Source: Longimicrobiales bacterium
Lineage (GTDB): Bacteria; Gemmatimonadota; Gemmatimonadetes; Longimicrobiales; Gaopeijiaceae
Reading direction: 5' to 3'
NCBI GenBank assembly: GCA_965238005.1
Contig: OZ250165.1
Coordinates: 1,280,001 to 1,344,000, forward strand
Length of the DNA: 64,000 nt
This document shows positions 48,902 to 64,000 of the stretch, in pieces; the first letter of the stretch is position 1; every line of letters begins with the position of its first letter. Under the pieces are notes generated by a model. That model was given only the letters and a program-made list of their open reading frames with translations, made no database searches and was not told the DNA's origin. The position numbers and the translations under genes were made by a program.

Positions 48902-51900
48902 ATGAAGTTGAGGTTCGCCCAACTCGGAGCTACCGCGCTCATTCTTCTCCTGTCGTGCACGACGGGGGACTCGCCGTCTGGGTTCGAGGGAGCGGGCATT
49001 ACGCGGCTATCTCTGTCGGTAGCGTATCCCACCGAGGTCTCTCCTGCCTCCTCGGCCGACATCAGCCGGATCCGCGTGACGGTTCGACGTGCCTCAGACC
49101 GGACGGTCCTTGACGTGATCGTGACGGAGGTGGAGCCGACGGCGAGCGAGTGGACGCTCGACCTGGAGCTCACGGTTCTGGACGGGGACCCGACGGTGAT
49201 CCTTTTGATCGAGTTGATCTCGGTGGAGAACGGGGTGGAGACCGTCGAGTGGTCGGGCGAGACGGGGCCGATCGGGCTGGCGCCGGGGCAGACGAGCGTG
49301 ATCCAGAACGTGGAAGTCGTGCAGGGCCCGCCGGGGAACCTAGCGGTGACATCAGTGACGATCGGACACCCTGGGGCGCTGGTGGAGGGGATGACGGTCC
49401 AGCTTCAGGCGGCGGTCGAGACGGACCAGCCGGGAGCGCAGACGCGCCTTCTGTGGGAGAGTTCGGACGCGACGAGGGCACGGGTGAGCGCGGACGGGTT
49501 CCTGGAAACCCTCTTGCCGGGGACGGTCCAGATCCGAGCGATGGCAGGCGCCGTAGCGGACGAGATCGAGGTGACAATCGACGCGAGGCCGGTGGGCCTG
49601 CGGTTCGTGGTGGAGCCCACGGATGTAGAGGTGGGTCAGCCCTTCGATTTGGCACCGAGCGTGGAAGCCATCGACACACGTGGGGACCGCGTGACGAACT
49701 TCACTGGTCTGGTGAGCATCGAGCTTCTGGACGCGGCGGCAGCCGGAGGGGGCGCGAGCGTGGGATCGGGCCAAGAGGGAGCGCCCGGCCCCGGGGCGAC
49801 GACTCAGGCCGAGGGGTGTCCGGAGGCACGGCCATGGTTGAACGGCACGACGGAGACAAATGCCGTGAACGGGCTGGCGGAATTCCCAGATGTCACGGTC
49901 GACGCACAATGCGAGTTTCAGATGGTTGCCCGGTCGAGTGGGCTCACTCAGGCGGTCAGCCTCCCGATCACGGCCTCGCCTCAAGAATTCGATCTCTCGG
50001 TCGGCAAGACGGTCCAGAAGGTGTCCGCCGTTGGGGTTTTGAGCATCGATGAGGGTGGCCCCACGGTGACCGTCGATGAGGGTGACGTCGTGCAGTTCAC
50101 AGTCACCGTAACAGACGAGCGGCCCGGCATCATATCGACCTTAGGTGCAGAGATAGACCCCGAAGCTGTAACTGGTGCTACCGTCGTGGATTTCCTGCCA
50201 CCTGGGCTGGTTTACGGTGATCACGAAATTACTACCGGCTCCACAACGTCGTCTACAGCGCCTTTAGCGGGCGCCTATTCTCACTTCGGGGGTGAAGCTG
50301 ACCCCTCGTACAATCCGGAGACTGGAGAGTGGGACGTCGGGGAGTTGCGGGGAACCGTGAGTCTCATCATTTGGGCGACAGTGGGCCCCGGTACCCAGGG
50401 CCAGGTGTTGGTCAACGAGGCGAATTTGACCCGGCAGGGTGACACGAATCCGGACAACAACGCCAGCAGCGCCACGGTGACCGTCAGGGCGAAGATGGCG
50501 GATCTGGGGCTAGGCAAGAGCGTGAGCGAGACGAGCCCGCTGGAAGGCCAAGAAGTGGCCTACACGATCACGGTCACGAACGGCGGTCCGCACCAGGCCG
50601 ATGACATCGTCATCGAAGGGCTAGTGCCGGACGGTCTCTCGATCACGGGAGGAATCGACCTGAATGCCGTCGGACGATTCGACCCCGACACGCGCCTCTG
50701 GCGTATCCCGACGCTCGCCCCGGGCGCGACGACCAGACTCAACGTGGAGGCAACGCCGGGCATGGGGTCAGCGGGCCAGGTGCTGACGAACACGGTGCGG
50801 GTCGCCTCGGTCGGGACGACCGACCCGAATGCTAGTAATGACGAGGCGAGCATATCGATCGACGTCCAGCCGGCGCCGACCCTGCCACCCATAGGAGAAC
50901 CGCTTGGCCCGTCGTACACGACGGTAGGGAATACCGATCTGGTGGCGGGAAGCTTCAGTCTCCCCACGACGCCCCACGTCGCGGATCCGGACAACCTGTT
51001 GTTCAACACCACATTCACCATGGTCACGACAACCGGCACGTTGCCGACGGCCAACGGCGGGACCGTCACCATCGAGGCGGACGGGGACTTCAGGTTCATG
51101 CCGGCTCCCGGTGACATAGATCCGGACGAGTTCTCCTACATGGTGAACACGGGCCAGACCGTGACGACCACCATCGCAATGCAGGACATGGTCTGGTACG
51201 TCGACAACTCTGCGGCCTTCGGCGGCAGTGGAACCTCCGCTCTCCCCTTCACTCAGCTCTCCGAGGCAGAGGCGGCATCCGGGGTGGGCGACCACATCTT
51301 CGTATTCGAAGGGAACGGATTCACGACGGGGATGGGCGACGGGATCACTCTGAAAGACGACCAAAAGATTGTGGGCGAGGGGCAGGGCCTCACGATCGCC
51401 CCGTTCCCCGCCCTCGTACCGGTCGGCAATGACCCTCAGCTCAGCAACATCTCTGGACCTGGCATCACTCTGGCCGACAACAACCTGGTTAGAGGGTTGA
51501 CCTTGGTCGGATCCCAGGGGCCTGCGATCCTGGGCAGTGGGATCATCGGGGGAACGATCGACAATGTTCTCATCGACGCACCGAGCGGCCCTGGCATCCT
51601 TTCTAAGCTCCACCACGGGTTTCTTCACCATCAGCGGTGTGACCACGGACGATACCTCGGGTGCCGGTCTCGAGATCGCGTCCGGAAGCCCCAGTGCGAC
51701 CGTGTTTGGGCTTACGGTCAACAACTCCTTGGGAGAAGGCATATTGCTGAATTCTACCACCTCAACCACCATCATTTTCAATTCGGTGGACATCACGAAC
51801 GCGGGCGGAACAGGCATGTTGTTTGACGAGGTCGGTGGAACCGTGACGATAAACTCCACGTCGGTCAGCGGGAGCTTTTTCGACAACCTGCTTCAGGTGA

Positions 51901-52751
51901 CCACCACCACAACGCCGCCGGTGTTCCTCGACATCGCGGGCTCGTCCTTCGACGGGTCGACCACTGGGAATGGGCTCAACCTGGTGAATCTCGGGGGCGA
52001 CGTGACCCTGACGTTCGACGGGGGGAGCGTGTCCAGCAACAATGCGGCCGCCGGCATTTTCATCGATGCGACCGGGGGGACCACCGACGCGACGATCCTG
52101 AACGGAACCCAGTTTACGGGAGGGTTCACGGGCTTCCGCGCGCGTCACTTGGCAACCACTAGTAGCACCGTCGTCGCCGACATCGACGGCGCGACGTTCG
52201 ATTTCCAGAACGGCTCGGCGATCGAGTTCGAAGGGATATCAACTTCCCTCGACGCGCAGTTCTTTATAACGGTACGCAACACTACCATCAATGGCCCGAG
52301 CGACAATGGCATCAGCATGACACACCAAGAGGATGAGCGGATAAAAATGCTCGCCGCGAACAACGCGATAACCGGAGTGGGGCAGGTCGCAATCCAGTTG
52401 CTATGCGGCACGCAATCGGGGGACCAGCCCGGTTGCGACACGACACTCCTGAACAACACGATCATCGGATCCGCCTTTTTTCCAGGCATCCTGTTGGACA
52501 ACCAATTCGGCTCCACAGTGTGCTACGATATACGTTCGAACGTGGTCACCCCGACCCGCGGAATTGAACTGAATCAGTCCGGCACCGGATTGGTCCGTAT
52601 CGAGCGTCAGGACGGCGTTGTGGGTTCGGAAGGCACGGCGTCGGTCATCGAGGCGCTCATTAAAGGGGAAAACCCGTCGGCAGCGACCGTGACCGTGAAC
52701 AACAGTTCGTTCTTCCTCTGGGGGTCCCCCGGAGCCTGCCCGGAGCCGTAG
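48902..52751 (+). CDS. Large surface lipoprotein (Ig-like, two DUF11-like domains, parallel beta-helix); 1-bp frameshift near 51600
   Basis: Lipobox LLSC; WESSD...ARVSADG Ig motif; DLSVGKTV/DLGLGKSV...YTITVTNGGP...DPNASND DUF11 motifs; WYVDN...G..GT...PF beta-helix start. ORFs 48902 and 51537 join if one base in ggcatcctttcta is removed. Confidence 0.85.
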
Positions 52752-55470: not shown

Positions 55471-55641
55471 CAAGGAGGCGCACTGTGGGCCGGTGCCCGG
55501 CCAACGAGATGGGCGTATCGGGGCCCTCGGGTTGCCGCCAACATCTGGCATGGCCCCGAGCGGGTTACTACGTTGCGCATCCGCCTCAATGAACCATCAC
55601 CCGTCGACTTCGTTGGACTGCCCCAGCGGGAGGAACCGCTC

Positions 55642-56991
55642 ATGTCACACCCCCGGACCAGCATCCTAGGCGCTGTTGCCGTCGTGGTTGCTCTAGCCAC
55701 CCTCGCCCCAAGGCCTTCCGAGGCTCAGTGGACCCCCATGAAGCGGGGGAGCGACAACATCGAAGTGCTGGGACACCTGCCCTTGGGCCCCGCCCTCAAC
55801 GTCGCGGACATGGACGTGGAGCAGGAGCTCTCCCGGCCCTATGCGTACGTGGGCCGTATGGTCTATGGGGGCGTGGGCGAGAAGGGCATGGACGTCATCA
55901 GCATCGAGGACCCGGGGCATCCTGAGCTCCTCTACGAGTGGCGCATCGACGAGCCGGATCTGCACCTCGGCCGGGGCGGGATGGACGTCAAGCACTTCAA
56001 GGTGAACGGCCGCTACTACGTGATCCAGTCGGTCCAGTTCGGCCAGGGTGGTCCGGATTCGGACATGGGCGGCGTCGTCCTCGACGTCACCGGCCTGCCC
56101 GACGTGTCCACGGTTCGCGAGGTCGCCAGGATCCGAGAGCCTCTCATGCCGGGTGGCTTCCACAACATCTTCGTCTACAAGCACTCCGACGGCCGCGTGC
56201 TGCTGTTCGCCACCGTGTCAGGCCCCTTTGCCCAAGTGTACGACCTCGGCAAGGTCGTTCAGGGCGCTTCCGCCGAGGAGGCCCTTGCCGGCCGTGTGCC
56301 CAATCCCAGCGCTGGTGAGGGCCGGGGCAACCGGGGCTACCACGACTTCTACGTGGGCTACCATCCCGACACTGACCAGGATCGCTTCTATGGTGGCGGC
56401 GGTGGCGGCTACTACATCTACAACGTCACCGACCTCGAGGAGCCTGAGCTACTGATCACCCTCACGGGCGTCAGTGGGGTTCGGGGCGGGCACACGTTCA
56501 CGCCGGGACCCAATGGCAGGTACGTGGTGGCCGAGACGGAGTACCAGTTCGCACCGCTCCGGATCTTCGACCTGCAGCCCGCCCTGGATGGGGAGACCAC
56601 CAACCTCCGCCGACCCATCTCGGGCTGGACGGCCGACTACAGGAACCTGACCCACAACCACGAGATTCGGTGGCCGCTGGTGTTCGTGTCCGGTTACCTG
56701 GACGGACTGCAGATCTTCAGCCTACAGGATCCCCACAATCCGGTGACCGTGGGCTACTACGACACGTACATCGGCCCTCGCGCGACCGAGACCAACCCCG
56801 TGTTCAACGGTGCGTTCGGAGTCGATGTCCGGAACGCCGACGGCCTGATCATGATCAGCGACATGAGCACCGGGTTCTGGACGTTCCGCATGGACGGCTT
56901 CCAGGGCTGGAACGGGAAGCAGTGGGGTGTGCCCGATATCTCCAGCGCCCAGAAGTGGGACGAGCCCGTACGGCGCCCCATCAGCGAGTAG
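55642..56991 (+). CDS. Secreted LVIVD-repeat beta-propeller, paralogue 1
   Basis: ATG 55642 after GGGAGG; signal peptide; repeats MDVISIEDP, VVLDVTGLP, YIYNVTDL, RIFDLQP, LQIFSLQDP; His motifs FHNIF, YHDFY, GHTFT, HNHE. Confidence 0.88.
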   Translation: MSHPRTSILGAVAVVVALATLAPRPSEAQWTPMKRGSDNIEVLGHLPLGPALNVADMDVEQELSRPYAYVGRMVYGGVGEKGMDVISIEDPGHPELLYEWRIDEPDLHLGRGGMDVKHFKVNGRYYVIQSVQFGQGGPDSDMGGVVLDVTGLPDVSTVREVARIREPLMPGGFHNIFVYKHSDGRVLLFATVSGPFAQVYDLGKVVQGASAEEALAGRVPNPSAGEGRGNRGYHDFYVGYHPDTDQDRFYGGGGGGYYIYNVTDLEEPELLITLTGVSGVRGGHTFTPGPNGRYVVAETEYQFAPLRIFDLQPALDGETTNLRRPISGWTADYRNLTHNHEIRWPLVFVSGYLDGLQIFSLQDPHNPVTVGYYDTYIGPRATETNPVFNGAFGVDVRNADGLIMISDMSTGFWTFRMDGFQGWNGKQWGVPDISSAQKWDEPVRRPISE

Positions 56992-57034
56992 AGCGAGTCG
57001 ACGGACTTTTCAGCGTAAGGACTTTTCGGGCCGA

Positions 57035-57156
57035 GCGCGGTGGCCGCGTTGCTATTCCTCGTCGTCGCGCCTGACCCACGCCTAACGGCGCGGGTACCTT
57101 GGATCCGGCGCCTCGGCACTCTCGGTGGCTCGCGAACTCCTGAGACACCACACCAG
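57035..57156 (-). mobile_element. Diverged MITE-family copy
   Basis: Minus strand ctggtgtggtgtctcaggagttcgcgagccaccgagagtgccgaggcgcc...aggcgcgacgacgaggaatagc...gccaccgcgc shares the core of the 15934 element. Confidence 0.6.
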
Positions 57157-57365
57157 TAGCGGGAGGGGAGGAGTGCCCCGTAGCTTGTCGGGCACTTCGA
57201 CCGACGCGTGCCGGCCCGAACGGCGCTTCATCTACACTGAGAGAGTTCTCCATGTCACGTCCACAGACCAGCATCTCGGGGGGGAGCGCGGCCCTAGGTT
57301 GTCTCGTCCGTTTTATCTTTGTTGCGCCCCCGCCAGGCACGTCATCTCCATCGGGAGGACCGCTC

Positions 57366-58712
57366 ATGTGGTACCGTCCTTCAACCCTCGTCGGCGCGGC
57401 CTCGACCGTCTTCGCTCTGCTCGTCTTTTCCGGGGCTCCGGCGTCCGCGCAGTGGACGGCCCTGAACCGGGGCAGCGACAACGTCGAGGTACTGGGGCAT
57501 CTTCCTCTGGGTCCGCACCTCAACGTCTCGGACATGGACGTGGAGCAGGAGCTCTCCCGACCCTACGCCTATGTTTCCCGCATGGTTTGGGGAGACGGCG
57601 GCGAAAAGGGCATGGACATCGTCAGCATCGAGGACCCTGAGCATCCTGAGCTCATCTATGAGTGGCGCATCGAGGAGCAGGACCTGCACGTAGGGACCGG
57701 TGGGATGGACGTGAAGCACTTCAAGGTGAACGGCCGCTATTACGTGGTGCAGTCCGTGCAATTCGGGCAGGGCGGCCCCGATTCGGACATGGGCGCGGTC
57801 GTGCTGGACGTGACGGGCCTTCCCGATCCCTCGACGGTGCGGGAGGTGGCGAGGATCCGGGAGCCACTCCTTCCTGGTGGGTTCCACAACATCTTCGTCT
57901 ACAAACACTCCGACGGTAGGGTCTTGCTGTTCACCACGGTTTCGGGACCCTACTCCCACGTGTACGACCTCGGTCTAGTGGTGGAGGGCGAGAGCGCCGA
58001 GAACGCCCTAGTGGGCCGCGTGCCCGGTCCCGAGCGCCAAGGCGGCGGGTCGGCCTATCACGACATCTACGTGGGCTACCATCCCGACACCGACCAGGAC
58101 CGTTTCTACGGGGGTGGAACGGGCGGCTACTACATCTACGACGTCACGGACATCGAGAACCCAAAATTGGAGATCACCTTGACGGGGATCCGAGGGGTAG
58201 GCCGCGGGCATACGTTCACGCCGAGTCCCGACGGGCGCTACGTCGTGGCCGAGGTCGAGTACCAGTTCGCGCCGCTCAGGATCTTCGACTTGCAGCCGGC
58301 CCTGGACGGCAGGGTGACGAATATCAACCAGCCCATCGCGGGCTGGACGGCCGACTACGAGAACCTGGTGCACAATCACGAAGTCCGCTGGCCCTTCGTC
58401 TTCGCAGCGTCCTACCTGGACGGGCTCTCGATCTTCAACCTGCAGGATCCGTCGAATCCGGTGACCGTGGGTTACTACGACACCTACATCGGTCCCCGGG
58501 GGACCAGGAGCGCCATCGTCGGAGGTGCTTTCGGGGTGGACATCCGCAACGCCGACGGCCTGATCGTCGTGAGCGACATGAGCACCGGCCTCTGGACCTT
58601 CCGCATGGATGGCTTCCAGGGGTGGAACGGGGAGCAGTGGGGCATGCCCGACATCTCCAGCGCCCAGAAGTGGGACGAGCCGCGGCGGAGGCCTATCAGC
58701 GAGCAGCACTAG
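57366..58712 (+). CDS. Secreted LVIVD-repeat beta-propeller, paralogue 2
   Basis: ATG 57366 after GGGAGG; long blocks identical to paralogue 1. Confidence 0.88.
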   Translation: MWYRPSTLVGAASTVFALLVFSGAPASAQWTALNRGSDNVEVLGHLPLGPHLNVSDMDVEQELSRPYAYVSRMVWGDGGEKGMDIVSIEDPEHPELIYEWRIEEQDLHVGTGGMDVKHFKVNGRYYVVQSVQFGQGGPDSDMGAVVLDVTGLPDPSTVREVARIREPLLPGGFHNIFVYKHSDGRVLLFTTVSGPYSHVYDLGLVVEGESAENALVGRVPGPERQGGGSAYHDIYVGYHPDTDQDRFYGGGTGGYYIYDVTDIENPKLEITLTGIRGVGRGHTFTPSPDGRYVVAEVEYQFAPLRIFDLQPALDGRVTNINQPIAGWTADYENLVHNHEVRWPFVFAASYLDGLSIFNLQDPSNPVTVGYYDTYIGPRGTRSAIVGGAFGVDIRNADGLIVVSDMSTGLWTFRMDGFQGWNGEQWGMPDISSAQKWDEPRRRPISEQH

Positions 58713-58746
58713 ACCATCACATCATCTTCAGCGGGAGGGACCGCTC

Positions 58747-60093
58747 ATGTCGCACACTCGGCCAACCCTCATCTCCGTGGCGTTCGTGATCGCGGTAATG
58801 ATCGCCCTGGTCGTGGCACCCGTTTCGGCACAGTGGACTCCCATGAAGCGGGGCAGCGACAACATCGAGGTCGTGGGCCACCTGCCGCTGGGGCCGCCCT
58901 TGAGCGTCTCGGACATGGACGTGGAGCAGGAGCTGTCCCGTCCGTACGCCTACGTGTCACGGATGCGCTACGGCGTCGCCGGCCCCAAGGGCATGGACAT
59001 CATCAGCATCGAGGACCCGGCCAACCCCCAGATCATCTACGAGTGGCGGATCGAAGAGCAGGATCTGCACCTCGGGACGGGCGGGATGGACGCCAAGCAC
59101 TTCAAGCTGGGCGATCGCTACTACGTGGTGCAGTCGACCCAGTTCGGCCAGGGTGGACCCAACTCCGACATGGGCGCCGTGGTGCTCGACGTCACAGGAC
59201 TACCCGATCCGTCGACGGTTCGGGAGGTGGCGCGGATCCGGGAGCCGCTCCGCCCCGGCGGCTTCCACAACATCTTCATCTACAAGCACTCCGATGGCCG
59301 TGTGCTTCTGTTCGCCACCGTTTCCGGGCCTGTCGCCAACATCTATGACCTCGCGCTCGTGGTGGATGGTGCGGACGCCGAGACCGCGCTCGTGGGGGAG
59401 GTCCCCGTGCCAGAGCAGCCCGAGGGCAGCTTCACGATGGGCTATCACGACTTCTACGTCGCATACCACCCCGACACCGACCAGGACCGCTTCTACGGGG
59501 GTGGTGGGGGCGGCTACTACATCTACGACGTGAGCGACCCGGCGAATCCCGAGCTTGCCATCTCCCTGACTGGAATCCGCGGCGTGTCCTGGGGACACAC
59601 CTTCACCCCGAGCCCTGACGGGCGCTACGTCGTCGCCGAGGCCGAGTACCGCTTCGCCCCGCTGCGGATCTTCGACCTGCAGCCAGCCCTGGATGGCCGG
59701 GTGAGCAACATCAACCGGCCCATCTCGGGTTGGACGGCGGACTACGACAACCTGGTCCACAACCACGAGGTCCGCTGGCCATGGCTGTTCGTGACGGGCT
59801 ACCTGGACGGGCTCCAGGTGGTGAACCTGCAGGATCCGTCGAACCCCGTGACGGTGGGGTACTATGACACCTACCTGGGCGTCCGGGACCCGGCCCGGTG
59901 CCAGGAGTGCAACGGCTCCTTCGGAATCGACGTCCGGAACGCCGACGGCCTCATCGTAATGAGCGACATGAGCACCGGCTTCTGGACCTTCCGGATGGAC
60001 GGCTTCCAGGGCTGGAACGGCGAGCAGTGGATGCCCGATATCTCGAGCGCCCAGAAGTGGGACGAGCCGGTGCGGAGGCCCATCAGCCAGTAG
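58747..60093 (+). CDS. Secreted LVIVD-repeat beta-propeller, paralogue 3 (unique CQEC loop)
   Basis: ATG 58747 after GGGAGG; same His motifs; the last variable loop is GVRDPARCQECNGSF. Confidence 0.88.
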   Translation: MSHTRPTLISVAFVIAVMIALVVAPVSAQWTPMKRGSDNIEVVGHLPLGPPLSVSDMDVEQELSRPYAYVSRMRYGVAGPKGMDIISIEDPANPQIIYEWRIEEQDLHLGTGGMDAKHFKLGDRYYVVQSTQFGQGGPNSDMGAVVLDVTGLPDPSTVREVARIREPLRPGGFHNIFIYKHSDGRVLLFATVSGPVANIYDLALVVDGADAETALVGEVPVPEQPEGSFTMGYHDFYVAYHPDTDQDRFYGGGGGGYYIYDVSDPANPELAISLTGIRGVSWGHTFTPSPDGRYVVAEAEYRFAPLRIFDLQPALDGRVSNINRPISGWTADYDNLVHNHEVRWPWLFVTGYLDGLQVVNLQDPSNPVTVGYYDTYLGVRDPARCQECNGSFGIDVRNADGLIVMSDMSTGFWTFRMDGFQGWNGEQWMPDISSAQKWDEPVRRPISQ

Positions 60094-60266
60094 CTCTCCC
60101 TACCTCGGTGAGCAGGTCCCCGGGGGTCCATCGGCGTCAACAAACAGCACGCGCGAGCCGTCTACATATGCTTACTGGCGACGTTCACCGCGCCTTGTAC
60201 ATTATGGTGCACGTCAGTGACAGCACTCACTGAAGGCAGCGCTTCACTCAAGTGGGAGAATGACCC

Positions 60267-61616
60267 ATGCAGCGCCCTCGGACTAGCAGTCTCGTTACGG
60301 TTGCTATCCTCACGACTCTCGCGATCACCCTGCCCGCCCAGGCGTCGGCGCAGTCGACCCCCCTGAAGCGGGGTAGTGACAATATTCATGTGCTGGGGCA
60401 TCTCCCCCTGGGGCCCGCCCTGAACGTGTCGGACATGGACGTGGAGCAGGAGCTGTCCCGTCCGTACGCGTACGTCGGCCGGATGCGGTACGGTGATGCC
60501 GGTCCGCGAGGGCTCGACATCATCAGCATCGAGGACCCCTCGCACCCGGAGATCCTCTACGAGTGGCGTATCGAGGACCAGGAGCTCCACTTGGGCACGG
60601 GTGCCATGGACGTGAAGCACTTCAAGGTCGACGGACGCTACTACGTGGTGCAGTCGCTACAATTCGGCCAGGGTGGCCCGGACTCGGATCTGGGAGCGGT
60701 CGTCCTGGACGTCAACGGACTACCCGACCCGTCCACGGTTCGTGAGGTCGCGCGGATCCGGGAGCCCCTGCTTCCCGGCGGCTTCCACAACATATTCATC
60801 TACAAGCACTCCGACGGCAGGGTGCTACTCTTCGCCACCGTCAGCGGGCCGTATGCAAACGTGTACGACCTGGGCAAGGTCGTTCGGGGAGCCTCGGCCG
60901 AGGAGGCCCTGGCCGGTCGGGTGCCCAACCCGCAGTCGGCCGAGACAGGCGGCAACCGGGGGTACCACGATTTCTACGTCGGCTACCATCCCGACACCGA
61001 TGAGGACCGCTTCTACGGTGGCGGCGGAGGCGGCTACTACATCCTCGACATCACGGATCTGTCGGATCCGCAGGTGCGCATCACGCTCACGGGCGTCAGC
61101 GGTGTGCGCGGTGGCCATACCTTCACTCCGAGCCCCGACGGCCGGTACGTGGTCGCGGAGACCGAATACGAATTCGCCCCCCTCAGATTCTTCGACCTGA
61201 AGCCGGCGCTGGACGGCGAAACGACCAACATCAGGCGGCCCATCTCCGGATGGACATCCAACTACAAGAACCTGGTCCACAACCACGAGGTCCGGTGGCC
61301 CTGGCTGTTCGTGTCCGGATATCTGGACGGCCTTCAGGTCGTGAACCTGCAGGATCCGACGAATCCCGTTTCAGTGGGGTACTACGACACCTATATCGGG
61401 CCGCGCAGCACCACCCGCACGCCCGTGTTCAACGGCGCCTTCGGTATAGACGTCAGAAACGCGGACGGGCTAATTTTGATCAGCGATATGAGCACGGGGT
61501 TCTGGACCTTCCGGATGGATGGGTTCCAGGGCTGGAACGGTGAGCAGTGGGGGATGCCCGACATCTCCAGTGCTCAGAAGTGGGATGCGCCCGTGCGTCG
61601 TCCTATCAGCGAGTAG
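60267..61616 (+). CDS. Secreted LVIVD-repeat beta-propeller, paralogue 4
   Basis: Signal peptide ending ASA-Q; same His motifs; its variable loops most resemble paralogue 1. Confidence 0.88.
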   Translation: MQRPRTSSLVTVAILTTLAITLPAQASAQSTPLKRGSDNIHVLGHLPLGPALNVSDMDVEQELSRPYAYVGRMRYGDAGPRGLDIISIEDPSHPEILYEWRIEDQELHLGTGAMDVKHFKVDGRYYVVQSLQFGQGGPDSDLGAVVLDVNGLPDPSTVREVARIREPLLPGGFHNIFIYKHSDGRVLLFATVSGPYANVYDLGKVVRGASAEEALAGRVPNPQSAETGGNRGYHDFYVGYHPDTDEDRFYGGGGGGYYILDITDLSDPQVRITLTGVSGVRGGHTFTPSPDGRYVVAETEYEFAPLRFFDLKPALDGETTNIRRPISGWTSNYKNLVHNHEVRWPWLFVSGYLDGLQVVNLQDPTNPVSVGYYDTYIGPRSTTRTPVFNGAFGIDVRNADGLILISDMSTGFWTFRMDGFQGWNGEQWGMPDISSAQKWDAPVRRPISE

Positions 61617-61619
61617 ATC

Positions 61620-62156
61620 ATGACCGTCTTTATTCCTCTCGCGGTGGCCATACTGGAGGCTGTCGGTCCGGTGACGCCCGGCATGTGTGTCGCCACCTTC
61701 AGCGATTCTCCGGTGTTCTACCAGGTGGAGCTGGTGACCACCAAGCGGGTCGCCGGCTCGGGGATGGCCACGGGCGTGGGCGAAGTCACGTTCACTCCTT
61801 CGCCCTTTGGCGTGAACCTGACCCAGAACGGTGACTACGTCCGCGATGTCGCGATCAGCGTAACCGCTTTGAAGGCACCATCCAAGGGCTCGTACGTGGC
61901 CTGGGTGACGACTCCCTCGTTGGACCGGACGAAGCGGCTCGGCGTCCTGGGTGCCGACGGTAGGGTCCACGGTCAGGTCGAGTACAACAAGTTCCTCCTG
62001 GTCATCTCTCTGGAAGACGACGACGGCTCGTCCTCCGAGCGCTGGAAGGGTCCGATCGTGCTCCGAGGCATGTCCAGGAGTGGGGCGATGCACACCTCCG
62101 CCGGGCATGGTCCCTTCGTGCAGGAGAATTGCATCGGGTACGGCTTCAACGGGTAG
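61620..62156 (+). CDS. Small probably exported protein with an RskA-C-like beta-sandwich pattern and a His/Met C-terminal tail
   Basis: 3 bp after the paralogue-4 stop; YVAW...LG...VISLE...GPIVLRG resembles the anti-sigma-K C-terminal domain; tail MHTSAGHGPF. Confidence 0.7.
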   Translation: MTVFIPLAVAILEAVGPVTPGMCVATFSDSPVFYQVELVTTKRVAGSGMATGVGEVTFTPSPFGVNLTQNGDYVRDVAISVTALKAPSKGSYVAWVTTPSLDRTKRLGVLGADGRVHGQVEYNKFLLVISLEDDDGSSSERWKGPIVLRGMSRSGAMHTSAGHGPFVQENCIGYGFNG

Positions 62157-62240: not shown

Positions 62241-64000
62241 ATGCGCATGCGCAAGACGGACAGCCGGCGGTCCACCGGATGGGGGAGAGCATATCGGATT
62301 TCGGGGGCACTGGTCCTCGGCCTCGCTCTCCTCGCAGGTCAGGTGCGGGGCCAGGAGATGGACCACGCCGCCCACGCCATGGATATGGGCGACAGCCTGG
62401 TGTGGACGATGCCGCCGCACCCCGCGTGGATGAATCCAGCCATGATGGCCCCGTTCATGGGGATCCTACCGAACGTCTCGCCGTTTCTGCCAGGTCCGGA
62501 CTTGGACATCGGCGTACTGCCGATGGCCCGTGCTCCCGAGGTGGTACAACTGGTCGACGGGGATACGCTGCGGCTCGACGCCGGGGTGCTGCATGGGATG
62601 ATCGGCAGCCGGATGGTCAAGGTGTACGGTTTCAACGGCCAGTTCCCGGGCCCGACGCTCAGAGTGCCCCAGGACGCGACCATCGTGGTGGAGTTCACGA
62701 ACAACATCGATTTCGCGACCACCCTGCGCTGGCATGGGGTGCGGGTCGAGAACCGATACGACGGGGTTCCGGGCCTGACCCAGAGGCCCGTCCGGGTGGG
62801 GAGCACCTACACCGCGCAGGTCCGTTTCCCGGATGCTGGAGTGTTCTGGTATCACCCGCATCAGCGTGGGCACATCGCGCAGGATCTGGGACTGTACGGC
62901 AGCATCATCGTCGACTCGCCGGATCCCGACTACTACGGCTCCGCCAACTCCGAGGAGTCGCTGATCATCGATGACGCCCTCATGACGGAGACGGGCTGGA
63001 CACCCTTCGGACTCGAGGCGCCGACTAACGCACTCATGGGGCGGTTCGGCAACGTCATTCTGGTCAACGGGCGACCCGGATTCCGGAAGACCGTCAAGAA
63101 AGGCGACGTCGTGCGGCTCTTCCTGACCAACGCGTCGAATACGAGGAACTACAACCTCAGGATCGAGGGCGGGGTCCCGATGAAGCTCTTGGCTGGGGGG
63201 CTCAGTCGGTTCGAACGCGAAGAGATGACGCCCACCGTGATAATCGCTCCCGGCCAGCGCTACGTCGTCGCCGCCAAGTTCGACGAGCCGGGCGAGTACG
63301 CGCTCACCAACCGGATCACCGCCGTCGATCACTGGATGGGAGAGTACTTCTACCAGGTCGATACGCTGGGTGTGTTCGTGGTGTCCGATGAAAGCACCGA
63401 TCAGGACTTCAGCGCGGCGTTCGAGACCCTGCGGTCCAACGACGAGGTAATCGCCGAGTTCGAGGCCGTGCGCGCCGAGGCGAACCGGCAAGTGGACGAG
63501 GAGCTCGTCCTGTCCCTCAACATCGGCGAGCTTCCCATCCCGGTCATCCTGATGATGGAGATAGACACGCTCTTTTACCCGCCGGTGGAGTTCAACGACG
63601 CCATGCCGATGATGAACTGGCTTTCCACCGGCATCAACTTGACGTGGCTCATGCACGAGCCCGACCCCGACGCGTCACGCCGCGACCTCGGGCCGGCGTT
63701 CGGGTGGCGGTTCAAGGAAGGGGACATCGTCAAGATCCGCATCTACAACACACACGAGTCCTGGCATCCCATGAGCCATCCGCTGCACCTCCACGGTCAA
63801 CGGTTCGCGGTGATCGAGCAGGACGGAGTGCAGACAACGAATCTCGTGTGGAGGGACACCGTCCTGATCCCGGTCGGCACCACCATGGATCTTCTGGTGG
63901 AGATGTCGAACCCCGGGACCTGGATGTTCAATTGCCAGATCCCGGAGCACGTGGGGTCCGGCATGTCCATGAACTTCACCGTGGAGCCGGCCCCCCCAGG
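62241..64000 (+). CDS. Three-domain multicopper oxidase homologue with intact type-1 Cu ligands but a degenerate trinuclear cluster; runs off the window
   Basis: Not in the ORF track (no stop). Hand-translated, open for 586 codons: signal peptide, Met/His-rich N-terminus, YGFNGQFPGPTL, motif I TTLRWHG, II WYHPH, III HPLHLHG, IV WMFNCQIPEHVGSGM. Confidence 0.92.
   Translation, partial: MRMRKTDSRRSTGWGRAYRISGALVLGLALLAGQVRGQEMDHAAHAMDMGDSLVWTMPPHPAWMNPAMMAPFMGILPNVSPFLPGPDLDIGVLPMARAPEVVQLVDGDTLRLDAGVLHGMIGSRMVKVYGFNGQFPGPTLRVPQDATIVVEFTNNIDFATTLRWHGVRVENRYDGVPGLTQRPVRVGSTYTAQVRFPDAGVFWYHPHQRGHIAQDLGLYGSIIVDSPDPDYYGSANSEESLIIDDALMTETGWTPFGLEAPTNALMGRFGNVILVNGRPGFRKTVKKGDVVRLFLTNASNTRNYNLRIEGGVPMKLLAGGLSRFEREEMTPTVIIAPGQRYVVAAKFDEPGEYALTNRITAVDHWMGEYFYQVDTLGVFVVSDESTDQDFSAAFETLRSNDEVIAEFEAVRAEANRQVDEELVLSLNIGELPIPVILMMEIDTLFYPPVEFNDAMPMMNWLSTGINLTWLMHEPDPDASRRDLGPAFGWRFKEGDIVKIRIYNTHESWHPMSHPLHLHGQRFAVIEQDGVQTTNLVWRDTVLIPVGTTMDLLVEMSNPGTWMFNCQIPEHVGSGMSMNFTVEPAPP

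Follow-up and report, generated by a model that had tools for sequence, protein, structure and literature searches.

Multicopper oxidases and their cupredoxin-fold relatives

The trinuclear copper cluster is the defining feature of multicopper oxidases, and its ligands have usually been probed by single mutants made in the laboratory. The cluster is built by six plus two His and is joined to the type-1 copper by a His-Cys-His path (PMC3738974; PMC2064922), electrons running from the type-1 copper to this interface site (PMC3738974). In Lentinus laccase, His64 is a T2 and His66 a T3b ligand (PMC2064922), while in CueO the substrate copper is bound by M355, D360, D439, and M441 (PMC6155172). The role of an Asp, D116 in CotA and D112 in CueO, is treated in PMC2944330.

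The same fold is found in SufI/FtsP, where the cluster ligands have been lost. Copper binding and the type-1 site have also disappeared from these proteins. NirK is an enzyme of the cupredoxin fold whose electrons enter at a type-1 site and whose chemistry is other than four-electron O2 reduction; in it, a His directly before the type-1 Cys links to the catalytic copper. In nitrite reductases, electrons likewise run from the type-1 to the interface site, and the redox partner of NirK is either a small blue-copper protein or a cytochrome. Ceruloplasmin has a full cluster at domains 1/6, and its domain-2 type-1 site, S-C-Q-N-L-N-H, which has an axial Leu and a Gln after the Cys, is not the cluster-linked one (PMC3738974). 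The clade examined here, hereafter R/N/Q, carries a symmetric triple change fixed by evolution, in which each copper of the trinuclear cluster has lost one ligand.

The R/N/Q protein and its ligand residues

The gene of interest closes the window, i.e., the whole stretch of 64,000 nucleotides that was analyzed, and follows four propeller genes and a small partner gene:

55573..56991 (+): first of the four tandem propeller genes
57252..58712 (+): second of the four tandem propeller genes
58609..60093 (+): third of the four tandem propeller genes
60267..61616 (+): His-rich LVIVD-like beta-propeller, fourth and last of the tandem paralogues
61620..62156 (+): small partner gene, 178 aa, with a conserved M-H-x-x-x-G-H-G motif and a Cys pair
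62241..64000 (+): R/N/Q-clade multicopper-oxidase-fold protein, three domains, 587 aa

From the ATG at 62241 the reading frame is open for 587 aa, with the stop at window position 64004, 4 nt beyond the window. The first ~37 aa resemble a signal peptide, and the product is acidic (pI 4.8). PF07732, PF00394, and PF07731 all score above the Pfam cut-off, corresponding to three cupredoxin domains. The top structural match of the AlphaFold model (mean pLDDT 90.7) is Thermus thermophilus laccase 2xu9 (Z 38.6, rmsd 2.7 Å over 413 residues); E. coli CueO (Z ~35) and SufI (Z 36.5) share the fold. A single RNA-library contig spans 63728-64000 with 4 differences, by which transcription is not shown.

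The residues relevant to copper binding are distributed as follows:

62727..62738 (+): motif I, R163-W-H165-G; R163 (CGC at 62727) takes the place of a type-2 copper His
62760..62762 (+): D174, acidic residue 3' of motif I, present in 51/52 R/N/Q rows
62853..62864 (+): motif II, H205-P-H207-Q208; two type-3 His kept
63330..63332 (+): H364, in a predicted beta-hairpin; His in 52/52 R/N/Q and 49/61 canonical rows
63603..63614 (+): Met-rich segment M455-P-M457-M458
63765..63794 (+): motif III region, H509-P-M511-S-H513-P-L-H516-L-H518
63930..63965 (+): motif IV, N564-C565-Q566-I-P568-E-H570-V-G572-S-G-M575, from the ORF translation

Five of the eight T2/T3 cluster His remain, and R163, N564 (AAT at 63930), and Q566 (CAG at 63936) occupy the other three positions; these substitutions, the type-1 site and motifs II and III had been read from the DNA in the original prediction, and residues and codons match the ORF. 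The type-2 copper has exchanged a His for Arg and both type-3 coppers have exchanged one for an amide, the His-Cys-His bridge having become Asn-Cys-Gln. H165 is a type-3 ligand still present (roles assigned via motif spacing relative to the Lentinus laccase ligands, PMC2064922), H516 is the type-2 His that is left, and H518 is a type-3 His. All type-1 ligand residues are in place, namely H513, C565, H570, and the axial M575 (at 63963), as they are in 47/47 members of a set not chosen by motif. By position, D174 would be the equivalent of CotA D116 and CueO D112. Q208, compared with the close canonical sisters, and P568 and G572 in the type-1 loop are clade-specific.

The Met/His residues of the putative substrate site, H364, M455, M458, H509, and M511, are found in 52/52 R/N/Q and 49-61/61 canonical rows (M455 in 60/61 and M458 in 55/61 of the latter). 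H364, placed in a hairpin by the secondary structure of the AlphaFold model, is a candidate substrate-copper ligand above the type-1 site, and the spacing of H509 and M511 presumably matches that of the CueO ligands D439 and M441.

With the laccase and CueO, the protein thus shares the type-1 His/Cys/His/Met set, motifs II and III, the Asp after motif I and Met/His residues that probably lie near the type-1 copper. Unlike them, it has three of eight cluster His replaced, no His-Cys-His bridge and a link to a cupredoxin, and it scores far below the CueO family cut-off (131 vs 525 bits). Unlike NirK, it has three domains rather than two, and N564 rather than His precedes C565; its TIGR02376 score is 49 bits against a cut-off of 296, while a true NirK above cut-off is encoded elsewhere in the same genome. 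Unlike SufI/FtsP, the clade has an invariant type-1 site and five invariant cluster His (FtsP score 67 vs 581 bits). Ceruloplasmin domain 2 likewise has Gln after the Cys, with an axial Leu where the R/N/Q protein has Met. A resemblance of the C-Q-I-P-x-H stretch to rusticyanin was looked for and not seen in the 60/127 rows listed.

Conservation and descent of the triple change

The direct parent family of the clade is formed by canonical sisters (HWHG...HCHIAEH), ~50% identical, which keep all twelve ligands and share with R/N/Q proteins the propeller and partner module, the Met/His cap and the N-terminus. No characterization of this sister family was found in the literature searched, nor was a description of the R/N/Q clade in the open literature, as judged from titles and abstract starts. 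The canonical family belongs to Gemmatimonadota/Rhodothermota and has matches at E<=1e-100 in 173/301 genomes of the order; the R/N/Q clade is present in at least three Gemmatimonadota families. With the same gene module, the canonical sister offers a natural control for the triple change.

All three full-length paralogues of the host genome (G000) carry the trio. The other two three-domain copies, at C1:3060984-3062762 and 3189152-3191332, are 55-59% identical, and no canonical three-domain enzyme is encoded in this genome; completion of the cluster by a canonical paralogue is thereby ruled out. Neither of the two refuting conditions in the original prediction that sequence can address came about. 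Two independent assemblies (L011 and L029, 97% identity) carry the identical CGC, AAT, and CAG. The original prediction had also proposed a search for homologues sharing RWHG and NCQ together with a selection test. N-C-Q occurs in 47/120 homologue clusters, the other 73/120 keeping His at all three positions, and in the set not chosen by motif N and Q are found in 47/47 and R in 46/47. Among the R/N/Q rows of the alignment, 43/52 of which were selected with a motif requiring N and Q, R163 is present in 51/52 and N564 and Q566 in 52/52, against His in 40/40 near sisters. The five cluster His, R/N/Q, and D174 are 98-100% conserved although only 19% of columns are invariant, whereas non-ligand His columns, e.g., H60, H118, H211, H472, and H505, reach 38-64%.

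The R/N/Q group is a single clade nested in the canonical family (support 100/99 with ten diagnostic columns removed), over whose length of 7.97 substitutions per site the trio has stayed fixed, while Arg163 is encoded by each of the six Arg codons. Among unsaturated pairs, the median dN/dS is 0.136 and 0.130 in the two bins whose dS does not exceed 0.8 (57 pairs); the overall median is 0.27 for R/N/Q against 0.26 for canonical sisters. Genomes carry up to three R/N/Q copies; 5/19 carrier genomes have no HCHxxxH...GM match and 8/19 have a canonical sister gene as well. The pattern is maintained under purifying selection. Since the paralogues share the trio, N-C-Q recurs in so many clusters, the group is one clade using six Arg codons and dN/dS is low, decay or error does not account for it, as the original prediction had held in favoring a change of function.

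Gene neighborhood and the associated cupredoxin

The partner and propeller genes flank 17/28 genome R/N/Q loci and 16/24 canonical loci. The partner protein has no Pfam match; some copies are fusions of its gene with the oxidase, and the gene is also present at canonical sister loci. That its M-H-x-x-x-G-H motif supplies the missing His is ruled out, since the motif is just as well conserved next to canonical enzymes and is missing from fused R/N/Q copies. The propeller has a seven-bladed fold with generic WD40-like structural matches tied at Z 28-30. Its nearest solved sequence relative is the binuclear Sphingobium phosphotriesterase, a weak link (E 7e-4 over 29 aa; Foldseek ranks 2-3, Z 28.0, 18% identity).

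Where 500 nt or more of downstream sequence was available, duplicates being kept in the count, a cupredoxin gene lies directly 3' of 8/59 R/N/Q loci and of 0/35 canonical loci, and the adjacent cases are scattered over several separate branches in the tree of the clade. By an E-value cut, for which 7-10 candidates were scored in each genome, the cupredoxin is found in 18/19 carrier genomes and 0/295 non-carriers, the carriers forming two separate RpoB lineages, so that the co-occurrence stands for only two independent host lineages. It is found in 5/301 genomes of the order, all within the 6/301 bearing the R/N/Q motif, and in 4/401 genomes of the phylum, all known carriers, from three families. 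Its His...Cys-x-x-His-x-x-Met set is invariant in 20 rows, with weak matches to plastocyanin-type proteins, and it has a basic R-R-R-N-R loop. At the level of sequence, a specific type-1 cupredoxin is co-inherited with the R/N/Q enzyme. An oxidase-cupredoxin fusion was sought in five longer homologues (1050-2995 aa), which do not have such a Pfam pattern.

In the host genome the cupredoxin gene is located at C1:971637-972356, ~370 kb from the R/N/Q gene of the window, and is followed, as in 5/14 fetched regions, by a module of a bd-like oxidase, two cytochromes c and an EB_dh-domain protein. The cytochrome c of this module is found in only 12/19 carrier genomes. The cupredoxin could instead serve the bd-like module itself or the copper nitrite reductase of the genome. 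A similar gene set surrounds Nitrospina NXR, where the bd-like protein is proposed to be alternative complex III-like (PMC3578206). Cupredoxins, cytochromes c, a bd-like oxidase, and a multicopper oxidase are also grouped in the NXR clusters of Nitrospina, Nitrospira, and anammox bacteria, the likeness being one of gene kinds only; nitrite oxidoreductase genes were not seen in the fetched G000 region. The shared propeller and partner module, the co-inherited cupredoxin and the loss of one ligand per copper were not part of the original prediction.

Possible functions of the R/N/Q enzyme

The reading preferred here, with a probability of about 0.38, is that of a secreted metal dehydrogenase uncoupled from O2, which would hand its electrons to the dedicated blue-copper cupredoxin. 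It is favored because, compared with the canonical sisters, the substrate side is unchanged while the acceptor side has changed, and because both kinds of enzyme share a gene slot and the cupredoxin is co-inherited with the R/N/Q enzyme. The substrate would still be the ancestral one, if judged by the CueO-like Met/His cap probably a reduced metal such as Cu(I); bound by H364, M455, M458, H509, and M511, it would feed the type-1 copper. The guanidinium of Arg163 would occupy the place of the type-2 copper, and four-electron O2 reduction would be lost, as the missing ligands suggest and the original prediction held. One or two metals may remain at the domain 1/3 interface under His2 plus amide-oxygen ligation, the sets being H165/H205/Q566 and H207/H518/N564, where they could act as a structural clamp or an electron reservoir. 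Electrons would leave to the cupredoxin and then, where present, to the c-type cytochrome and bd-like membrane module. Counting against this dehydrogenase, 51/59 R/N/Q loci have no adjoining cupredoxin, the one in the host genome is distant and could have another role, the co-occurrence covers only two host lineages, and 8/19 carrier genomes have a canonical sister gene too.

A fuller picture is offered tentatively and with some doubt: Arg in place of the type-2 copper, a type-3 pair held by His2 and an Asn/Gln oxygen, and the cupredoxin with the bd-like/cytochrome c module may together form a periplasmic respiratory branch, conserving electrons from metal oxidation or reducing a nitrogen oxide or peroxide. 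Such a His2 plus Asn/Gln site has no counterpart in the solved relatives found. Heme-copper oxidase motifs occur in the genome, and an anoxic lifestyle is therefore not shown.

It is unlikely, though worth weighing first among the alternatives, that the enzyme is a periplasmic reductase, in which the membrane cytochrome module would feed the cupredoxin and electrons would pass through the type-1 copper and Cys565 to copper bound by Gln566 and Asn564. The His2-amide dicopper site, with Arg163 as an anion anchor, might then reduce a small molecule by a route other than four-electron O2 chemistry, the candidates being nitrite, NO, N2O, and peroxide, or O2 if taken to H2O2. The type-1-to-interface direction would stay as usual, which favors this reductase over the dehydrogenase. 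The near-complete conservation of R, N, Q, the five His and D174, well above that of non-ligand His columns, agrees with it. The clade-specific P568, G572, and G488 could form a docking surface, the cupredoxin has a basic loop and the enzyme is acidic, and a TIGR04244 search of G000 gave no NosZ. On the other hand, the His that adjoins the type-1 Cys in copper nitrite reductases is missing, the TIGR02376 score is low, a separate nitrite reductase in the genome does pass the cut-off, and the Met/His cap and gene module, being those of the oxidase ancestors, suggest the same substrate.

Less likely still is a non-catalytic protein, i.e., a type-1-only carrier, a Cu(I) buffer or chaperone, or a scaffold for the propeller or partner; its interface would be empty, the polar residues there serving folding. 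Ceruloplasmin domain 2 is a precedent for a non-ligand Gln after Cys, SufI has the same fold, and structure alone can conserve buried His; but other degenerate relatives (e.g., P0217, P0227, P0233, P0235, and P0250 among 149 representatives) lose their ligands piecemeal and differently, while the R/N/Q trio has persisted throughout a long clade and through every Arg codon. The original prediction had considered a copper buffer from the Met/His-rich N-terminus, an idea weakened by the same N-terminus in canonical sisters, and a buffer has no obvious use for a dedicated cupredoxin. Of its two other suggestions, a plain type-1-only carrier is less likely than a remodeled five-His site, given the conservation of the five His and R/N/Q.

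Somewhat more improbable again, the protein may still be an O2-reducing oxidase, amide oxygens standing in for the type-3 His and H516 with solvent holding a labile type-2 copper. D174 and the five His are retained, and with canonical three-domain enzymes missing from G000 the R/N/Q copies may do the ordinary job. Fet3p His-to-Gln variants reportedly keep copper. In Fet3p, the type-1 site is still measurable when type-3 His ligands are mutated (PMC4323517). However, the cluster requires its full His complement and the His-Cys-His path (PMC3738974; PMC2064922), Arg would be unable to stand in for a type-2 His and would push the copper ion away, and unchanged chemistry is hard to square with three simultaneous substitutions on a single branch together with the gain of a carrier gene.

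A decaying pseudo-enzyme or sequencing artefact is very improbable: every substituted codon differs from a His codon at a single base, 2/28 genome loci (L010 and L012) have only the 3' part of a fused-type copy and the clade varies at more sites that sisters conserve, but the recurrence of N-C-Q, the clade support, the low dN/dS and the multiple copies per genome speak against it.

If still redox-active, the clade would show how an oxidase can become a reductase or a dehydrogenase, and a dicopper site of a new kind may come to light in it. As had been anticipated, its members are named automatically as ordinary enzymes ('multicopper oxidase family protein', 'FtsP/CotA-like multicopper oxidase', 'suppressor of ftsI'), and laccase and metal-oxidation potential is therefore over-assigned in such genomes.

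Motifs, fold and copper ligands

Translation from the ATG at 62241 gives an open frame in which, as the original prediction had it, three cluster histidines are replaced by R163, N564 and Q566 with motifs II and III intact; the complete type-1 (T1) copper site that it also claimed can be read in motifs III and IV as H513, C565, H570 and M575.

ATG 62241, stop 64004 just beyond the window, forward strand: R/N/Q enzyme, 587 aa
CGC at 62727, forward strand: motif I, R163-W-H165-G
Motif II: H205-P-H207
Motif III: H513-P-L-H516-L-H518
Motif IV: N564-C565-Q566-I-P-E-H570-V-G-S-G-M575

All three Cu-oxidase Pfam domains are above cut-off, and no NCBIfam equivalog cut-off is reached: the CueO profile gives 131 bits for a cut-off of 525, and the enzyme is neither a nitrite reductase (49 vs 296 bits) nor a member of SufI (FtsP profile, 67 vs 581 bits), where copper has been lost. 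The AlphaFold model, for which 97 sequences were used, reaches a mean pLDDT of 90.7, and its best structural matches are Thermus laccase and CueO (top Z 38.6, with an rmsd of 2.7 A over 413 residues). By sequence and structure comparison, the enzyme is alike to CueO/Thermus-type enzymes on the T1 side, whereas it differs from multicopper oxidases in both the cluster ligands and the His-Cys-His bridge. No description of the R/N/Q clade was found in the main texts of the open literature searched.

The trinuclear cluster requires six plus two His, with His-Cys-His as the electron path, according to PMC3738974. Ligand roles were assigned by motif spacing against the table for Lentinus laccase in PMC2064922, where type-2 (T2) copper is bound by His64/His397, T3a by His111/399/451 and T3b by His66/109/453. 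R163 thereby takes a T2 position with H516 as its partner, while N564 groups with H207/H518 and Q566 falls to the copper of H165/H205. Exactly one ligand is thus lost at each of the three coppers. Judged from sequence, the T2 histidine is replaced by a cation (Arg) predicted to be unable to bind copper and both T3 histidines by amides, which could themselves bind it.

A conserved clade

On its single contig of 4.84 Mb, the genome encodes three three-domain paralogues, all R/N/Q (3/3), and no HCH-type three-domain enzyme. Homologues sharing the motif changes, proposed as a check in the original prediction, were found: the best 120 of 4080 homologue clusters, the genome's own three copies included, comprise 46 R/N/Q, one H/N/Q and 73 with His at all three positions, and no other ligand mixture. 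The motif IV pattern, which leaves position 163 outside, was searched in a species-genome collection and in metagenomes, yielding 28 loci over 19 genomes, all titled Gemmatimonadota, and 25 metagenome loci. Position 163 is Arg in 43/43 unique full-length genes with all six Arg codons in use, and Asn564 and Gln566 are each encoded by both possible codons. The R/N/Q pattern occurs in 0/149 further 50%-identity representatives, 88 of which are fully canonical and a few of which show scattered, differing ligand losses.

With FastTree, 52 R/N/Q rows form a single branch among 113 rows (support 100), which persists without the three trait columns (summed branch length 7.97); once ten diagnostic columns are removed, IQ-TREE supports the clade at 100/99 in a subset of 46 of these rows. 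The check for purifying selection also came out in favour of the prediction, with median dN/dS of 0.136 and 0.130 in two bins with dS <=0.8 (Nei-Gojobori, 57 pairs). The overall medians, 0.27 for R/N/Q (589 usable of 903 pairs) vs 0.26 for canonical genes (228 of 276), are probably too high because deep pairs are saturated. Among 47 members not chosen by motif, H165, H207, H516, N564 and Q566 are conserved in 100% and R163, H205, H518 and D174 in 98%, compared with 19% of columns invariant and 38-64% for five non-ligand His columns. Further clade-specific residues include L162, Q208, A213, G338, G488, P568 and G572. On the other hand, the clade varies at a number of sites fixed in its canonical sisters, and 2/28 genome loci carry just the 3' part of an R/N/Q copy.

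These two loci, L010 6971-8155 and L012 6953-7630, hold a 5'-truncated form of the fused-type R/N/Q paralogue, with an intact copy elsewhere in both genomes. The clade member P0014 has His restored at 163 and Arg at 205, as if Arg had shifted within the site; this swap is known from a single contig and may be an error. Distant relatives (P0217, P0227, P0233, P0235, P0237, P0250) show other copper-ligand losses, some without the T1 Cys.

Putative substrate side and gene module

H364, M455, M458, H509 and M511 are found in 52/52 R/N/Q rows vs 49-61/61 canonical rows, and H509/M511 presumably match the CueO ligand spacing relative to the T1 His. In CueO, the substrate copper ligands are M355, D360, D439 and M441 (PMC6155172). 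The Met/His-rich N-terminus is common to R/N/Q enzymes and canonical sisters, and so are two neighbouring gene types.

Window 55573-61616: four tandem His-rich LVIVD-like propeller paralogues, seven-bladed (11 such genes genome-wide)
Window 61620-62156: partner, 178 aa, unnamed, secreted-looking, with an invariant H-x-x-x-G-H-G motif and a Cys pair

Both flank 17/28 genome R/N/Q loci and 16/24 canonical loci, the latter count resting on 1.5 kb flanks only. The partner adjoins or is fused to oxidases of both kinds, fusion being seen in one paralogue of this genome and many canonical relatives; atlas comparison leads from it to YoqH and RskA_C-like domains. The propeller has a predicted seven-bladed fold, is weakly linked to the binuclear phosphotriesterase of Sphingobium, and its invariant His/Asp/Glu motifs suggest a putative metal site. 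Just past the window, an FG-GAP and LVIVD (choice-of-anchor-B-like) protein gene (L001 4081-6510, reverse strand) converges on the oxidase gene. Near 51.5-51.8 kb, a big surface-protein-like gene (window 48902-52751) is apparently split across two frames, with one ORF at 48902-51826 and the other at 51537-52751.

Association with a cupredoxin

A protein with cupredoxin and carboxypeptidase-regulatory-like domains, His...Cys-x-x-His-x-x-Met and a basic loop is encoded directly downstream at 8/59 R/N/Q loci (duplicates included, and counting those whose sequence runs on for 500 nt or more past the gene) vs 0/35 canonical loci. These eight fall in several separate tree branches, which suggests that the adjacency is ancestral. 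Here the orthologue lies elsewhere, adjoining another propeller gene.

C1:971637-972356, ~370 kb from the R/N/Q enzyme: cupredoxin orthologue (E 5e-84 to profile)
C1:971637-979122 (L105 9637-17122): two cupredoxins, bd-like subunit, two cytochromes c, EB_dh cytochrome

The cupredoxin is encoded in 18/19 carrier genomes, with best E values no higher than 7.4e-43; the only one without a match is a 2.0 Mb bin. Among 301 order genomes, whose five carriers apart from the present genome overlap with the 19, it occurs in 5, all among the 6 with the R/N/Q motif. In 401 phylum genomes, searched for the cupredoxin only, it occurs in 4, all known carriers, spanning three families; G378 and G399 of this set have the same contig coordinates as G305 and G306. 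In an RpoB tree of 29 genomes, the 14 carriers fall into two lineages separated by non-carriers; kinship alone therefore does not explain the link, whose support amounts to two independent host lineages.

In this genome and 5/14 fetched regions, the cupredoxin gene is followed by genes for another cupredoxin, a protein like cytochrome bd subunit I, two c-type cytochromes and a cytochrome with an EB_dh domain. The first cytochrome of this run occurs in 12/19 carriers and 3/301 order genomes, all carriers. A similar gene set surrounds nitrite oxidoreductase, where the bd-like protein may act like an alternative complex III (PMC3578206).

Proposed function

Given its ligand set, the enzyme very probably no longer carries out four-electron O2 reduction, and the gene linkage makes redox exchange with the cupredoxin rather likely. 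A switch from oxidase to dehydrogenase acting on Cu(I) or another reduced metal is tentatively favoured (probability about 0.38) because the substrate-side cap and gene slot are unchanged, the acceptor side is changed and the carrier is new. As a dehydrogenase, the enzyme would oxidise a reduced metal, e.g., Cu(I), with the cupredoxin as its new carrier. Against this, the genome encodes heme-copper oxidase motifs and a true copper nitrite reductase, possibly an alternative user of the cupredoxin, and a canonical sister gene is also present in 8/19 carriers.

C1:4285600-4286502, reverse strand: copper nitrite reductase, above cut-off

A second and rather unlikely reading is a reductase whose dicopper site has His2-amide ligation; it is favoured by the usual electron flow from T1 to the interface and by how strictly Arg, Asn, Gln and Asp are kept. 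More doubtful is a non-catalytic T1 protein, for which the S-C-Q site of ceruloplasmin domain 2 is a precedent. A working oxidase would have to operate with odd ligands, and is somewhat less probable again. Decay, set beside a conserved clade under purifying selection, is scarcely credible.

Other copper and cytochrome genes

NosZ (TIGR04244) was not found in the genome. It has one more bd-like module, less closely related, which adjoins a heme-copper oxidase at C1 ~599.7-604.8 kb. Two other genes with products resembling copper proteins were noted.

C1:4609457-4610545, reverse strand: two-domain multicopper protein, adjoining a ZIP-like metal transporter gene (named by eye)
C1:3062800-3064125, reverse strand: convergent on paralogue B, with a long N-terminal domain ahead of a C-terminal plastocyanin-like domain (C-I-P-H-E-G-A-A-M)
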